DNA of 35,061 nt from a virus (IMGVR_UViG_2654587570_000013:1-35061); one strand, 5' to 3'. Positions 25,694 through 34,755 are shown, numbered from the stretch's first letter. The notes: generated by a model from the letters alone, not told the origin. Made by a program: numbers and translations.

Positions 25694-27601
25694 TTAGAAC
25701 GATGTTACCCAACTACGGCCTCTATTTGGAGGTCTGACGATGTTTTGACGTTGCGGTCGTGTGATTGGCTTAGTTTCTTCGATTTGCTCGTTAGATTGCG
25801 ATTTAGGAGCTTTTACGGGTTCTTCGACAACGCGGTTTAAGCTGTCTTTCATTGCAATGAGTTTATCCCATGACATTTTTGAAAGGACGTAGCGAGAAGC
25901 CGCATAGCTATAAACCAGACAGTCGAGAGCCTCGTTTCGGGTACTACCTGGATTTTTCACCCAACGCACGCCAGTAGTAGTACGCTTGATGGATTCACTC
26001 AAAAGCTGATCGAGATAATCATCAGGAACGGTTTCTGATATCTCTAAACCAATATGAGGATTGTCTTTCAGGTTTCTAACCAGCATTTCACGAACAGCAG
26101 ATTTACCAACGTTAACACCCAGCATAAGCAATTCATGACCACCTGTGCGGGTAGGTTTAACCGGAATCACTGGAGCATTACCAGATGAACTACCTTTGAT
26201 CGCGTGTAGGTTCTTCCACTTACCGCAAATACGGTATCCGGCTTGAGTGAATCGACCGTTCGATGTATCAAGGAAGCTGGCGAGCATAGGAACACGATCA
26301 CCCGATACAGTAGTAAATTTGGTTTTATGGAAGTTGATTAATCTATCCCATACAGGGGATTCATATCGTTCACAGTTATGATCGTAAAAGCTGCGGTGAT
26401 CCAGAATGTAAACCTTATCTTTCGCTACACCTAAGATGGTAGTTTCTGCGCGATCTAATTGCTGGTCAGTACCCGCACATAAGAAAATCACGTCATCAGG
26501 GATATTCTCGATAGAAACATCTGTTTTGAGTTGTTCCAGTTCATTTGCTTCTACTGCCGTGTCCTGATCGTCGTATACCTTGCCTAACACGGTGTTAAAA
26601 AAGGATTGTAAATCAAAGGATTGCCACGCATGACTAAAATCAACCACACAAGCGCGAATCGTGCTGAAAGGTGAATACAGACGACTGATCCAGAATCCTG
26701 CTACCTCACTTTCACGGGTTGCTCTCCACTCTCCTTGTGCTACTGCCCTGATTCGTTCCCCTTCTGTCCATGCGTTCTTACAGTGGGGGCAAATATAACG
26801 AGCGGTATCAGGATCGGGTAAGTTCTTACCATCAATGTTACGCCATTCAAATTGAACGTTTTCCCACTCGATCACCTGGTGTCTACCGCAATGAGGACAC
26901 GGAACAAAAAACATACGCATATCGCTTGATAACCATTGCTGGTTAATGCTTCCCAGCTTACTGGTCGGGGTACTGGATACGACTAATCGACCTTCATCGC
27001 CAAAGGTAGTTAAACGGTTAGCAGCCAGTGCCACCGGATCACCTTCTTCTGAGGCTGTGGCAGCATCAATTTCGTCAAGTAATCCAACCTTTGCGGTCTT
27101 ACCACGTAGGGTTGATGGGCTGGTAAGCGATACCATGTACAGGAAGTGATTCGTTTTTAACTGGAGTTGGTTGTTGTTGTTAACCGCGTTGCGATCATTC
27201 TTGTCTGTAACCACGTCTTTCAATGCATCACATGCTTCGATAGACGGTCGGATCTTACCCGCGAGATATTGAGACATTTCTTTAGCGGTTGATTGTCCGA
27301 TAATCATATTGCATGGATCGTTAGCCATCTGGTTAAACAGGATACCGTTTAGGATGGTAGTTTTTCCGATCTGCGCACTGGTCATCAGTACATACTTTTT
27401 CTTATTCTCAAGGAAAGGAGCATCAATCATGCCTTTCTGGAATGACAGCAATTTAACTTTATCCCCCGCTTGAGGACCATCTACCAGCACCATATTCGCT
27501 TCGCACCATTCAGACGGAAGGAGCTTAGGCGGTGGAGTGATATATTTTGCGGCATTTTTAAGAATCTTTTTTAATTTTGCCTTATTAGAAATCAGTTTCA
27601 T
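25694..27601 (-). CDS. terminase large subunit (lambda gpA family)
   Basis: 635 aa; Walker A-like SAQIGKTT; VPCPHCG zinc motif; C-terminal [14 protein letters not shown] resembles lambda gpA RNEALDCFVYALAA as recalled; GAGGGT SD; first gene of the leftward operon. Confidence 0.9.
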
Positions 27602-27688
27602 GTAATTACCCTCATTACGAAATATGAAGGTATTTATTAAATTATTGATATTTTGATAAATACGGGTATTAAGATTTAAGGAGGGTGT

Positions 27689-28285
27689 ATGCTAATTAAT
27701 CAGCAAGAAAGAGATGAATTAGCCTTGTCTTGTACCGATCATGAATATCGTTTACCCGTTAAGCATAAGCATTTAAAAACCGATTACACAACATCTGGGT
27801 TTAGCCGTGAGGAAGCGAAAGAGATTTTAATAGAATTTTACCGTGATAATGGCTATAGAGACGTTCATAACTTCTTTAAGAAGCATCGCACATCACAGAC
27901 AGAGTTTCAGCGAGTCCGTGAGTGGTTTGATTTTGATATCAAGCGTTATTATCGCATTGATGACGGTCCTATCTATCGGTTGCAGTGGAAGCCGATCAGG
28001 GAAGTGTTGAAACAGAAGAGATTGAATCACGCAATTACACGCTATCGTAACGAGGCTTTCAAGAAAGGCTATGGTGATACAAGGGAACTATTCGTTGAAC
28101 TCGCTAACGTGAAGTACAGCCACTATTACAACGATCCTAAAGGGTTCTTTGAAGTGCTTCGCAAGGTTGATATAAGTCGGGGTACATATTATTCACGGTT
28201 GAAGAAGTACGGGATTAAGGCAGAGTTCTTTATGTCGGTTGACGATGGAGAACTTTTTCCGATAAAATGTAAGTCCTCTAAATAA
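27689..28285 (+). CDS. protein with two copies of a small HTH-like module (putative DNA-binding regulator)
   Basis: 198 aa; AAGGAGGG SD; two internal segments ([17 protein letters not shown]...FFKK and [17 protein letters not shown]) match the module found in the two small downstream proteins. Confidence 0.5.
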
Positions 28286-28314
28286 AGGTGAACATTCACT
28301 TTAATTTGGAGAAA

Positions 28315-28548
28315 ATGACTATGACTACTAAAGCTACTCGCGGTCGCCCTACCCGTTTTAATCGTGAACAGATGGCTGATATTGCCTACGCTTACTATAC
28401 AGCGGATCGTGGTAAGGAAGCGAAAGAACAGATTCTTAGTGAACATGGGATCTCAATCGCCCAATTCTATAAGAATATGAAGAAGTTAGACATTAAATTC
28501 TATGTTCAGATCGGTGATGGTCAGATCGTAGAAGCAACAGGTTTTTGA
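28315..28548 (+). CDS. small HTH-like DNA-binding protein (paralogue family)
   Basis: Start placed at ATG 28315 after GGAG; the ORF track starts at a GTG at 28288. RGRPTRFNREQMADIAYAYY ... GISIAQFYKNMKKLDI parallels the 31655 protein. Confidence 0.5.
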   Translation: MTMTTKATRGRPTRFNREQMADIAYAYYTADRGKEAKEQILSEHGISIAQFYKNMKKLDIKFYVQIGDGQIVEATGF

Positions 28549-28556
28549 TTCTCTTT

Positions 28557-28581
28557 GCCACTCTTCGGAGTGGCTTTTTTG
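28557..28581 (+). terminator. rho-independent terminator (UUCG tetraloop)
   Basis: GCCACTC-TTCG-GAGTGGC followed by TTTTTTG. Confidence 0.6.
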
Positions 28582-29813: not shown

Positions 29814-29871
29814 AATTAACATCCTCTTTACAAATCTAGGTCAAATAGGTTCAAAGTTGTCAAGTGCGATA

Positions 29872-29900
29872 ATCATAAAAAAGTTAGAAAATTTTGTCAA
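29872..29900 (-). promoter_or_regulatory. near-consensus sigma70 promoter (leftward)
   Basis: Minus strand reads TTGACA - 17 nt - TATGAT; the -35 element is embedded in a TTGTCAA/TTGACAA inverted repeat. Confidence 0.45.
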
Positions 29901-29935
29901 TGCCCCTTGACAAGCCACCAAAGGGTTGACCTAAC

Positions 29936-30394
29936 TTACAGCATATCTAAGCCTTCATCATGGCCGTAGAAGCCACCGTGAGAAGAGAAACAGATTGGTG
30001 CGTAGTCGTCGTCATCTTCGTCTTGTTCATCTTGTTCTGGGGCTTCCTGAGCGGGTTGTTTGCCGTAATCAGCCATAATCTGGTCAAGATCAGCGATCCC
30101 ATAGTAAGAGCCTAAATCAACGTCATATTCACGAACATCAAACGGCAGGTCATCACGAACAATAATTGCTGGAATATCGTTGTATTGAAGACGACCTTCA
30201 TCAGTAAGACAGTCGATGATCACAGTAGGACGACCATTTCGTTTTAAAGCGTAGAAAGCAGTTGAGTAGTTGGAGTCTTCGGAATGACGAATGATGTTAT
30301 AACCACGATTAGCGAAAACTTCTAGCATATGGAAGTTACCATAGTTTTCAGAGTCCAGACCCAGAAGTACGAAAGGAGTTTTAGTATTGATCAT
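29936..30394 (-). CDS. hypothetical protein with acidic C-terminal tail
   Basis: Start placed at MINTKTP, which has a GAGGA SD; the ORF track extends to 30424. 152 aa with a DEQDEDDDD tail. Confidence 0.5.
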   Translation of the reverse strand: MINTKTPFVLLGLDSENYGNFHMLEVFANRGYNIIRHSEDSNYSTAFYALKRNGRPTVIIDCLTDEGRLQYNDIPAIIVRDDLPFDVREYDVDLGSYYGIADLDQIMADYGKQPAQEAPEQDEQDEDDDDYAPICFSSHGGFYGHDEGLDML

Positions 30395-30967
30395 AGTGGT
30401 ATCCTCTAAAAGAAAGTGAATCAAACAAATTACACTAGTATTTATACGAGAAAAAAATATCTATTTGGAAGTGATTGGATTCAGTCGGCTTCGCCTCCTT
30501 CATGATTTTGATTAAATCATCATCAAAACGAAGGAGTATCTTTAGAATATAAGAATCTTTCTTTTGGAGAAATAATAATCAGGAAGCAATTTGGCAACCG
30601 AAGGTTGCAATCCCGAAGGGATACCAATACCTTTCTAGAAAGTGATTGTTACTCACTTCGTTCGTTTACTAGAATCAGTTAGTAACTAGCATTAAATCCC
30701 TTTCTAAGAAAATCCTTTCAAAAGTGAGTGAACGCCGTAGGCGTGAACGTGAGCGAAGCGAACTATCCAATCCCTTTCGAATCCTGCTTGCAGGTCTTAG
30801 AAGGTGTTGATGGGCGCTTCGCGCACGGCTACGCCGTATTCTTTTTGCGAGATCTTTCTTGAACGTAGTGAGAGAAAACGAGCAAAAAGGAGAACGTTAG
30901 TTCGAATTTTATATTCTATGGTCTGTGGGGTGAAATGTTTTTCAAGATCATACACTTATGAGATTGA

Positions 30968-31090
30968 AGTGTAGGGTTAGTGTAGGTGTGTAGGTTTCAT
31001 AGTGTAGGTTTGAGGGTGTTATAGTGTAGGTTTACTGGCTAGTGTAGTGTAGGCCAATCCCTTTAAAGTGTAGGTTTGTAGTGTAGGGTT
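30968..31090 (+). repeat. array of ~9 direct GTGTAGG(T/G)TT repeats (iteron-like)
   Basis: Copies start at 30969, 30980, 30988, 31002, 31024, 31047, 31068 and 31081, plus a degenerate copy at 31042; all same orientation with irregular 8-23 bp spacing, inside a 1.2-kb ORF-free region. Confidence 0.6.
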
Positions 31091-31284: not shown

Positions 31285-31313
31285 TTGACAACTGTCAAGG
31301 ATTATTTTATACT
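31285..31313 (+). promoter_or_regulatory. near-consensus sigma70 promoter (rightward) with overlapping palindromic operator-like site
   Basis: TTGACA - 17 nt - TATACT; the -35 element is part of the palindrome TTGACA-ac-TGTCAA. Confidence 0.5.
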
Positions 31314-31654
31314 TTTTATCGCTGGTGGGGGTTGAAATTTTCTAAACAGCCCCCATATAGATGATAAGCAAGATTTTTCGTGTATAAATACATGCATGAA
31401 ATGATTGTTCACTTCTGAAAATCCCCTGATTCACTGTTAACACATACAGCACTGGTTAAACACACAGTGCTTTTTCGATTAAATAATGTACGAAATGATT
31501 AATTATTAATCTTCTCTTTAGCAATTCGTGCTCCCACTGATCGGATATACAGTGGTTTTACAGGGTTTTCTGAAATGACTTTTATAAATAGAAGTATCGA
31601 GGGCGAAAAGCTCTTTTTATTGTCCTTATTAATCCACATTTGAGGAATCTACTT

Positions 31655-31834
31655 ATGGCTAGACCTGTTAAGTTTACTCGTGAAATGATTGTTGATATTG
31701 CTAAACGCTTTTATGGCGATACTGAACGAGGCGGCGAGAATTTCTTTAAGAAGGAAGGAATTGATAGAAGCGGATTCTATAAGTTAATGAAGAAATACGA
31801 AATTCAGATAAAGATTAACGTTCAAGTTTGTTAA
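31655..31834 (+). CDS. small HTH-like DNA-binding protein (paralogue family)
   Basis: Start placed at MARPVKF, which has a TGAGGA SD; the ORF track starts at 31640. ARPVKFTREMIVDIAKRFY ... GFYKLMKKYEI parallels the 28315 protein. Confidence 0.5.
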   Translation: MARPVKFTREMIVDIAKRFYGDTERGGENFFKKEGIDRSGFYKLMKKYEIQIKINVQVC

Positions 31835-31950
31835 TCCACTTTCACTGAGAATTATATGATGGCTTTAAAAATAAAAAGCCTCCCTTGTTGCAGCAAAGGA
31901 GGCTTGAAATGAACAATTAAAACTAACACAGCATTCAGGAGTATTTATAA

Positions 31951-32946
31951 ATGAAAAATTCTAAGCGCATCACCTTCAACCTGTTTATTAAATCCAACGG
32001 CAAACTGAACATTACCGTCATGGAAGGTAAAGCAAGCAAACAAGACAAATCCTTTGAAGTAGTATCCGGTAAGACTCTGACCGAAATGCGTCAGAATGCT
32101 GGCATCAAAGACGGTGCTGAATGGCAGATCACTAACCGTTTCGACAAACGTCACGTTAAACCTACACTGGTAGAAGGTGAATCCGTTTATTGCTTCGCTC
32201 GTGCTGTTAAAGCCGATGAAACTTACTATCTCGCTGTTGTTAAAACTGCTTCCGGCTTCCGTGCTGTAATGCATCACAAGAGCAAGCGTAACGAATACGG
32301 CGTAGAGACCCAGGAAGTCGCAAAACGCTTCCGTACTGTTGCTACCGAATCCACTGTAAAGGATGTTTCTGGTACTGTTAACACCGCTAAAGGCGGTTCC
32401 TTCTACAACCACGCATTACAGGTTACTTCCTCCTTCTTCTGCAAAAAAGAAGCACAGAAAGAAGTTTCTCCGGTAGTAGTTGAAGAAGTTAAAGAAGAAG
32501 TTGCAGTGGTTGAATCTTCCGAAGTTGAAGCACTGAAAGCACGCATTGCTGAACTGGAAGCTGAAAACGCATCTCTGAAAGCTGAACTGGCAGCACAGGA
32601 AACCACTTTCGAAGTAGCAGCGGTTGAAGTTGAAGCAGTTGAAGAAAAATCCATTGATGAAGAACTGGAAGAACTCCTTAACTATCGCTGGGGTGTTGTT
32701 GCAGAAGTAGAACAAGAAGTTGCTCCGGTAGTTGTTCCGGTTGAAGTTGAAAAAGAATCCGCACCTGTTACTAACTTTGAATCCCTGCGCAATAACTTTA
32801 TGGCTAAATTCAAAACCACTTGGGAAGATACCGAAGAAGAACAAGAAGAGATTGAAGTAAACGAAGACGAGATCCGCGAAGCACAGATGGCACTGCATGA
32901 CGCTATCTACGACACCAACTACAGCGCCTACGCATACGCAGCTTAA
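31951..32946 (+). CDS. abundant acidic coiled-coil protein of unknown function (early region)
   Basis: 331 aa; globular N-terminal ~170 aa followed by a Glu/Val/Ala-rich coiled-coil and acidic tail; very strong optimal-codon bias (cgt, ctg, ggt, gaa); AGGAG SD. Confidence 0.7.
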   Translation: MKNSKRITFNLFIKSNGKLNITVMEGKASKQDKSFEVVSGKTLTEMRQNAGIKDGAEWQITNRFDKRHVKPTLVEGESVYCFARAVKADETYYLAVVKTASGFRAVMHHKSKRNEYGVETQEVAKRFRTVATESTVKDVSGTVNTAKGGSFYNHALQVTSSFFCKKEAQKEVSPVVVEEVKEEVAVVESSEVEALKARIAELEAENASLKAELAAQETTFEVAAVEVEAVEEKSIDEELEELLNYRWGVVAEVEQEVAPVVVPVEVEKESAPVTNFESLRNNFMAKFKTTWEDTEEEQEEIEVNEDEIREAQMALHDAIYDTNYSAYAYAA

Positions 32947-33904: not shown

Positions 33905-34456
33905 TTAAGACACATCAAATTCATCGTCTTCTTCTGGTTCTTGTTCCGGTTCATCCATTAATGGTAATTCTTCTTCCTCGTCTTCTCCTAAATCCGCATT
34001 TTCGAACAAGTCCCCTACTTCATTTAAACGACGCTCGATGATCTCCCTTAGCTTATTCTTCAATGTTTTCTGGTCGGTGGCAGATTCAAGAATTTCTAAA
34101 GCGTCGATTGTGGCGATCTGCAAAATAGTCTGTTTCACCTTCCCGCAATATTCCGCTAGTTCCTGCTCAACATACCCGACCGGAATCAGGAGGTTCATTG
34201 CTTCCTGGTTCTCTCGTTCGGCTGCATCTGCTAATGCTCTCTCACGGCGTAATTTCTCTACGTCGATTTGTTCCTTGACAGTAGTTTCCCTGAGTGGACT
34301 GATGATATTTTTTGCTACCCACTCGGTCCCCTCTTTGAGTGGCACGCGGCGGGTATTGGTATTGTAAGGTAGTCCCCTTTCTAACCATTTCTTAGCGGCG
34401 TTAATTGTATAGCCGTATAAGCGGGAAATTTCTGTAAGGGTTAATTCTTCTTTCAT
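33905..34456 (-). CDS. HTH DNA-binding protein with acidic C-terminal tail (Nu1/terminase-small-subunit-like N-terminus; alternatively a regulator)
   Basis: 183 aa; N-terminal LTLTEISRLYGYTINAAKKWLERGLPY resembles the Nu1-type HTH; central coiled coil; DEEEELPLMDEPEQEPEEDDEFD tail. Confidence 0.5.
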   Translation of the reverse strand: MKEELTLTEISRLYGYTINAAKKWLERGLPYNTNTRRVPLKEGTEWVAKNIISPLRETTVKEQIDVEKLRRERALADAAERENQEAMNLLIPVGYVEQELAEYCGKVKQTILQIATIDALEILESATDQKTLKNKLREIIERRLNEVGDLFENADLGEDEEEELPLMDEPEQEPEEDDEFDVS

Positions 34457-34755
34457 CCGGTTATCCTCCTTTAAATTTGCGTAAAATTATTTATCTGATC
34501 TGCGCATTCAGGAGAGCGCCTAAAACGCTTTATAACGAAGGGAAAGATCGAGGCATGGAAAGGGATTGGCGTGTGTTAATAGTCGCGTAGCGACCGCGCT
34601 GGTGGGCTGCACTGCACCTGTTTTGAAATCTCACACGCACATCAAATACCGGGGTGCCGAAAACTCCCTTTATTTCACCCGTGGAACAGTACCTTTTGAT
34701 TTTGTCAAGTCTTTTTTATAAATAATCGAAAATATTTTTCACACGAGGGCAAATC

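Follow-up and report, generated by a model that had tools for sequence, protein, structure and literature searches.

Paralogous basic helix-turn-helix proteins as probable regulators in the non-structural block of an enterobacterial prophage

What do three small proteins built on one recurring module do in a prophage whose other non-structural genes are almost all without annotation? The question is raised by genes A, B and C in a 35,061-nucleotide stretch of viral DNA (the window), which is a temperate enterobacterial siphophage-like prophage of E. coli, about 35 kb long. The prophage encodes a large serine recombinase (996-2690) and, on the minus strand, a gpA-type large terminase, TerL (25694-27601), the first gene of a long structural operon that continues with a portal and then a protease-capsid fusion. 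About 8 kb of non-structural genes lie to the right of this operon. Of 5426 complete E. coli genomes, 58 (approximately 1%) contain a close relative of the prophage, and in these every gene of the non-structural block except Rha is annotated 'hypothetical'. Among cultured phages we found none related at the DNA level or through protein A, and no relatives of the C-like protein or of the p331-like protein discussed below; the closest TerL (45%) is that of phage DCP80, whose upstream genes are unrelated. Scans of the window for tRNA genes and Rfam families were both empty. Members of the group are integrated in hicB, leaving a truncated hicB, or beside a truncated PHP-domain gene (L001 30264-30572; the right flanks of L002 and L037-L040), and their right-end cargo varies, comprising an LprI-family protein, p101 or, in L044, a reverse transcriptase-TIR protein.

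The genes, the shared module and its fold

The three genes exist as an earlier note on this DNA had described them, each an open reading frame with its own ribosome-binding site. Gene A (27689-28285, plus strand, ribosome-binding site AAGGAGG) encodes 198 residues with a pI of 9.4, laid out as an N-terminal peptide (residues 1-17) that is conserved but modelled with low confidence, followed by two helix-turn-helix (HTH) modules with a variable linker between them. In the AF2 model, which has a pLDDT of 72 overall and 80-92 within the modules, module 1 (residues 36-100; 27794-27988, plus strand) consists of helices at 40-54, 59-65 and 70-80 and a hairpin at 84-98, and module 2 (residues 128-192; 28070-28264, plus strand) of helices at 132-145, 150-159 and 164-173 and a strand at 178-184. 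The 39 homologues of A, from Escherichia, Salmonella and Proteus, are all annotated 'hypothetical' and fall into five types that are mutually 44-68% identical. The hairpins and module 2 are the best conserved parts of the family, the three helices having a mean pairwise identity of 69% in module 2 compared with 54.5% in module 1, and the linker and residues 18-36 are the most variable.

Gene B (28321-28548, plus strand) encodes 75 residues with a pI of 9.3; of its possible starts at 28288, 28315 and 28321 we chose the last, because the homologues begin MTTKATRGRP. The protein comprises an N-terminal RGRP arm, RGRP being the core of the AT-hook, then a highly conserved three-helix HTH and a β-hairpin, and its family conserves the RGRP and GISIAQFYK stretches. 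B is missing from the related prophage L040. Gene C (31655-31834, plus strand; 59 residues, pI 9.6) is found in all related loci, in four types that are mutually 41-61% identical. It encodes an ARPVKF arm and a three-helix HTH with a truncated hairpin, and its family conserves ARPVKFTRE at the N-terminus, ahead of helix 1. All three proteins are thus basic (pI 9.3-9.6), and their homologue families are confined to prophages of Escherichia, Salmonella and Proteus.

The note's claim that a module recurs four times, twice in A and once each in B and C, is borne out. In BLASTP, with E-values that refer to single comparisons, B matched C at 3e-10 (36% identity), A module 1 matched B at 1e-4, and each module of A matched C at 4e-5. 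Aligning the family profiles with hhalign (26 A, 13 B and 19 C sequences), the profile-profile check that the note had proposed, gave significant results in all six comparisons, with E-values from 1e-5 to 2e-10: module 1 with module 2 (1.1e-5, 82%), with B (6e-7, 92%) and with C (1.2e-8, 96%); module 2 with B (5e-6, 86%) and with C (1e-8, 96%); and B with C (2e-10, 97%). The repeat is therefore real, but its unit is about 60 residues rather than the 45 or so first suggested, and the consensus then given fits B and C well but both A modules loosely. A conserved β-hairpin follows the third helix in A module 1 (FYVQIGDGQIVE), A module 2 and B, and is shortened in C.

The AF2 models (pLDDT 80-92 in the modules) show a three-helix bundle, in which helices 2 and 3 form the HTH, plus the hairpin, and so support a predicted fold of the homeodomain-like, or HTH_23/HTH_7, kind. 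Sequence databases placed the module less directly. A Pfam scan of A, B and C gave no match with E < 0.01, and none reached a curated threshold; scans against Pfam, PHROGs, NCBIfam and PADLOC returned nothing significant, and a PDB sequence search with the module profile matched no solved structure. When 43 modules were scanned singly, weak scores appeared for HTH_Tnp_1, HTH_7, HTH_10 and HTH_28 (E 0.017-0.12). We also ran the module profile against 1.84 billion representative proteins in an exhaustive HMMER search, which found only 31 proteins; beyond the A, B and C families these were a few C-like proteins of 59-64 residues and proteins with 4-8 tandem units of about 50 residues. The multi-repeat proteins matched the profile at E 4e-16 to 1e-5 in 5-8 stretches each, and, of ten scanned against Pfam, nine had strong scores (1e-15 to 1e-35) for HTH_23, HTH_28, HTH_7 or HTH_Tnp_1. 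We conclude that the module forms, among the simple tri-helical HTH domains, a branch that lacks annotation: a new and narrow member of a very well known kind.

Outside the prophage families, the closest relatives of the module are the proteins P0086-P0098 (375-981 residues), which carry 5-8 tandem HTH units of about 50 residues with the pattern GIS..TYY.LLKKYGI.

The nearest known systems are the HTH domains of the Hin/resolvase and transposase type (HTH_7, HTH_23, HTH_28, HTH_Tnp_1, and the bipartite Tc3, CENP-B and paired domains). The prophage proteins differ from these in scoring below the Pfam thresholds, in having the extra conserved β-hairpin after helix 3, and in being free-standing, without a catalytic domain. 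With homologous modules, a predicted HTH fold and three basic proteins, the description of A, B and C as a set of related DNA-binding proteins holds, and it is reasonable to regard them as related DNA-binding regulators at the level of fold and context, their DNA binding, targets and regulatory role being what we infer. Our preferred reading, to which we give a probability of about 0.55, is that they are paralogous basic arm-plus-HTH transcription regulators of the prophage's regulatory and replication block. One module, a three-helix homeodomain-like HTH followed by a β-hairpin, would lie behind all three, with a short basic arm ahead of the HTH in B (RGRP) and C (ARP). Hin and Tc3 insert their third helix into the major groove and place the arm in AT-rich minor groove; the prophage proteins would bind in the same way, the arm occupying the adjacent minor groove and the hairpin acting as a wing or as a surface for protein-protein contact. 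The two-module build of A suggests, by analogy with Tc3 or paired domains, a bipartite site, so that A would be a two-module bipartite binder and B a dispensable single-module partner encoded behind it. No binding site for A, B or C was identified.

Gene A and the small terminase subunit

A different role for A had also been raised, that of a small terminase subunit in disguise: A, alone or with B, would place its HTH domains on a cos or pac site and recruit the gpA-type TerL. The position of the gene invites this. A is divergent from TerL and only 87 bp from it, and nothing lies ahead of TerL on its own strand; both genes have a ATAAATAC box; the 198 residues of A compare with 181 in lambda Nu1, which is likewise a phage DNA-binding protein of about 180-200 residues beside a gpA-type TerL (the binding by A being predicted); and both termini of A are conserved among its types.

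The similarity to Nu1, however, belongs to another protein. p183 (33905-34456, minus strand, 183 residues) is a candidate Nu1-like small terminase subunit; hhalign of its family alignment (A5) against lambda Nu1 gave a probability of 93% and an E-value of 3e-7 over 104 columns that span the N-terminal winged HTH and the central ER-rich region. Two orthologues match Pfam Phage_Nu1 at 1.2e-5 and 0.004, below the curated cut-off, and terminase small subunits head its PDB sequence matches, weakly. The gene lies about 6 kb from TerL, with the regulatory and replication block between them, and has its own ATAAATA box at 34488. Such a separate Nu1-like protein was present in every family member checked, and A, B and C showed no similarity, by sequence or profile, to Phage_Nu1, DUF1441 or solved terminase small subunits. 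Among all fold and family matches the only small subunit was a PHROG match at E 0.09 from one of the 43 modules, and the model of A has no central coiled-coil or oligomerization region.

Gene order and exchange point the same way. A adjoins TerL in the window and in L002 and L037-L040. In L044 the two are apart: TerL is flanked by Rha, and A (split into two open reading frames), B, C and a p331-like gene are contiguous on one strand in a rightward block directly behind the iterons. Moreover, the A and TerL types recombine freely: A may be only 52% identical against a 97%-identical TerL, and the reverse is also seen. From p183, the L044 gene order and this free recombination, it is therefore unlikely that A is a small terminase subunit, and we rate the chance as very low; neither fold search supported the idea.

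Iterons, promoters and boxes

If the proteins are regulators, as we prefer, the next question is which DNA they might recognize, and the earlier note had pointed to the iteron array (30965-31090, plus strand), about eight copies of AGTGTAGGTTT. Every lineage has 8-16 short direct repeats at this place, with a repeat sequence that differs: AGTGTAGGTTT in the window and L037, TTTCAGGGGCAAA in L002, CTAGGGATG in L039 and TTTCACGGACAAAAA in L040. Proximity would favour A, B or C as the origin or centromere recognition factors that bind the array, which precedes C by about 600 bp and, in L044, comes immediately before A; in addition, A has tandem HTH domains, and iteron-binding Rep proteins carry two winged-helix domains. 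When A, B, C, p331 and the iterons were typed in 35 related loci, however, the iterons followed p331 (31951-32946, plus strand), a hypervariable coiled-coil protein of 331 residues with no family match. Iteron type matched p331 type in all 33 typed loci: 15 pair GTGTAGG repeats with the window-type p331, 16 pair CAGGGGCA with the type-2 p331, and two are singletons. The module proteins behave otherwise. Loci with A type W include 13 with one iteron type and 15 with the other, and B types W and 2, like C types 40 and 37, are likewise seen with each; among the common types of A, B and C, the window-type C alone does not occur with both common iteron types. Between the window and L037 the iterons are shared and p331 is 96% identical, but identity is only 52% for A, 65% for B and 46% for C; conversely, L039 and L040 share an 87%-identical C but have unrelated iterons.

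Because the types of A, B and C assort independently of iteron type, iteron specificity is not set by the module proteins, the suggestion to that effect fails, and we consider iteron binding by them the least probable of the roles weighed here. The C gene sits between the iterons and p331 and is exchanged independently of both, so the coupling of iterons to p331 looks functional, and p331 is likely to be the iteron-binding protein, as an initiator or a centromere binder.

The promoters offer a second set of possible targets. The note had placed both small genes first behind strong promoters, which is right in part. C is the first gene of a rightward operon, C-p331-p80, and a σ70-type promoter (TTGACA-17-TATACT, 31285-31313, plus strand; 11 of 12 positions) is kept in all loci with several spacer variants, but it lies about 340 nt upstream of C, and between the two, in most lineages, come a TATAAATA box (31583-31590) and a terminator-like hairpin (31599-31615), both on the plus strand just upstream of C. 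B, on the other hand, is the second gene of an A-B operon that ends at an intrinsic-terminator-like hairpin with a T run (28557-28574, plus strand), and a promoter-like site, matching at 10 of 12 positions, lies inside the end of A (28239-28268). Moreover, A shares its -10-like ATAAATAC box with the TerL operon, so that A and B, which the note called early, might instead be expressed late. The two boxes stand back to back, that of TerL on the minus strand (27630-27637) and that of A on the plus strand (27656-27663), in the 87 bp between the divergent genes. This interval is kept in all six lineages that we compared, despite an identity of only about 50% for A among them; neither box has a good -35 element.

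These boxes belong to a larger set. The ATAAATA 7-mer, mostly as TATAAATA, which equals the consensus of the T4 late promoters, occurs 15 times in the window (659, 3797, 4911, 11630, 15376, 27631, 27656, 29645, 30439, 31384, 31584, 31942, 33890, 34488 and 34718), and 13 of the 15 copies lie 13-75 nt upstream of a gene start and are oriented with the gene. Among the genes so preceded are TerL, A, C, Rha, p150, the Nu1-like gene and those of the tail and lysis operons; no site has a recognizable -35 element. TATAAATA itself was observed nine times against 2.6 expected, and none of 100 shuffles reached nine. For the TTGTCAAG sites, which the note had named as another possible target, the count of the 8-mer, four copies against 1.7 expected, was not significant (9 of 100 shuffles reached four).

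One could imagine that A, B and/or C are phage factors that steer RNA polymerase to the TATAAATA and ATAAATAC promoters that lack a -35 element. The correct placement and excess of the boxes, which stand before nearly all operons, speak for such a factor, as do the failure to recognize a sigma-like protein among the proteins scanned, the position of C as the first product of a strong σ70 promoter, and the high conservation alike of A module 2, the HTH of B and the box motif; an AT-hook-like arm would also suit a motif made only of A and T. Yet nothing links protein and motif directly, B is dispensable, and the recognition helix of C varies where the motif does not. The T4-like phages that have C-like genes encode their own late sigma factor, and TATAAA could serve the host σ70 as a -10 element. 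On balance we regard a promoter-steering role as unlikely.

Nor did operators emerge that vary with the type of protein. This candidate was rejected: leader, promoter spacer and iterons each vary in type without regard to A, B or C; the variants of the promoter region do not follow A, B or C type, no DNA element was found that co-varies with the type of A or B, and C types differ from one another only over a segment from about -100 to +180 relative to the gene. Because the C and A types recombine freely with respect to the flanking types, no operator co-variation supports sequence-specific regulation. A, B and C may recognize conserved sites, or may not be determinants of specificity at all.

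Several further features of these promoters were observed. The -35 element of the rightward promoter (31285-31300) forms part of a palindrome, TTGACAACTGTCAA, and the leftward promoter (TTGACA at 29900) is flanked by an inverted pair, TTGTCAAG and CTTGACAA (29857-29864 and 29906-29913), which is retained in most E. coli loci; no repressor gene was identified. Downstream of C there is a conserved stretch, TGAGAATTATATGATGGCTTTAAAAA.

The C cassette and the proposed roles

The surroundings of C give our preferred reading its more specific form. C is always the first gene before a p331-like gene, in a cassette with the conserved order iterons, σ70 promoter, long leader, C, putative antisense RNA, p331 and p80. 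We predict an antisense RNA of about 70 nt (31935 to 31866, within the minus-strand segment 31866-31949) opposite the 5' region of p331, since the minus strand has a TATAAATAC box across the start codon of p331 and an intrinsic terminator (31905-31876). The box and terminator between C and p331 are present in the lineages of E. coli and Salmonella that we compared, as well as in L044, and the variation in the stem favours pairing on the minus strand; the exact box is absent from the Proteus locus L039, and the box from L003 and L026. On the plus strand, a mini-ORF of 2-3 codons (ATG AAC AAT TAA, 31890-31920), with its Shine-Dalgarno sequence in the 3' arm of the hairpin, is kept in most lineages, including L044 despite a different hairpin sequence.

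This layout is that of plasmid copy-control units, in which a small repressor, an antisense RNA, an initiator and iterons go together (CopG, RNAII and RepB in pMV158; CopB, CopA and RepA in R1), and we therefore propose, by analogy in gene order and from the predicted antisense RNA, that C is a first-gene regulator of the Cop or Cro type. The likeness is one of gene order only, a small DNA-binding protein, a short predicted antisense RNA and an iteron-linked protein with iterons nearby; CopG is a ribbon-helix-helix rather than an HTH protein and has no sequence or fold similarity to C. A second parallel is with lambda Cro, P2 Cox, 186 Apl and Mu Ner, which like C are small basic HTH proteins encoded first behind a strong σ70 promoter, in operons that also hold replication genes. 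The prophage differs from these systems in having no adjacent divergent repressor gene and no operators that vary with type, and the proteins have no sequence similarity. C would then be the small first-gene regulator of the cassette, acting before an initiator gene as CopG and CopB, or Cro and Cox, do.

P2 Cox and 186 Apl combine excision with early regulation. In an alternative reading, one of the small proteins would act in their manner, as the recombination directionality factor (RDF) of the large serine recombinase, with C the likeliest for this role. The phage integrates by that enzyme and has no annotated RDF, and C is small, basic and first in the operon behind the σ70 promoter at 31285. 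Against this, the types of A, B and C are unlinked to the integration site (hicB or the PHP-domain gene), which we used as a proxy for integrase specificity, and C-like genes occur in T4-like lytic phages without a nearby integrase. An RDF among these proteins thus seems improbable to us.

The T4-like genes lie in two metagenomic contigs, L042 (4890-6625) and L047 (5117-7077). In L042, a long non-coding region with its own iterons (AGCGATTAC) precedes the C-like gene, after which a p331-like protein (E 3e-10 against the p331 N-domain) is encoded; the same minus-strand ATAAATAC box and terminator, laid out as in the prophage, and a coiled-coil protein of 80 residues complete the set, the whole inserted between homologues of T4 genes 3 and 2; its proteins occur in no cultured phage. 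In L047, the C-like gene follows a non-coding region of about 880 bp, in which no clear iteron array was seen, and precedes a 295-residue protein of uncertain relation to p331. T4 oriE/RepEA/RepEB was considered as a homologue of the cassette and rejected, since RepEB and RepEA are open reading frames of 45 and 50 residues antisense to gene 5 and the metagenomic cassette lies between genes 3 and 2.

The region upstream of the cassette has features of its own. Some 0.5 kb ahead of the iterons (30440-30960) holds no convincing open reading frame but many short G+C-rich hairpins with GAAG or GNRA-like loops (for example GCAACCGAAGGTTGC and ATCCCGAAGGGAT), and a similar hairpin-rich stretch precedes the iterons of L042. 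Within it, 75-78 nt of non-coding sequence (30507-30584) are about 80% identical to an unannotated intergenic region near gene 24 in RB49-like (Krischvirus) T4-type phages, and correspond to no tRNA or Rfam family. A conserved 150-residue protein (29936-30394, minus strand), divergent from the iteron region, ends in an acidic tract and a near-invariant C-terminal peptide, DDYAP..F....G.....GLDML, the last five residues of which loosely resemble a sliding-clamp-binding motif.

A bolder version of the regulatory role may also be put forward: the module proteins, C above all, would be the dedicated regulators of an iteron/HTH/antisense/p331 cassette portable between lytic T4-like phages and the prophages of enterobacteria, and at least one of them would also activate the T4-late-like TATAAATA promoters that lack a -35 element. 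Taken jointly, these claims are quite unlikely, but if they held, the entire programme of a temperate phage would be driven by a class of promoter hitherto associated with T4 gp55.

At the level of the preferred reading, that of arm-plus-HTH regulators, the module adds to this prophage an unannotated HTH subfamily of three helices and a hairpin, with an AT-hook-like arm in some members. The more unusual features of the locus are around the HTH family rather than within it: a replication-like cassette in common with T4-like phages, an iteron array whose sequence changes in step with one hypervariable protein, a small terminase gene apart from the large one, and a TATAAATA box before almost all operons. 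The main value of the module family is as a way into the regulatory block of this phage group, and the binding locations of A, B and C, once known, would help to show how the phage is switched on.
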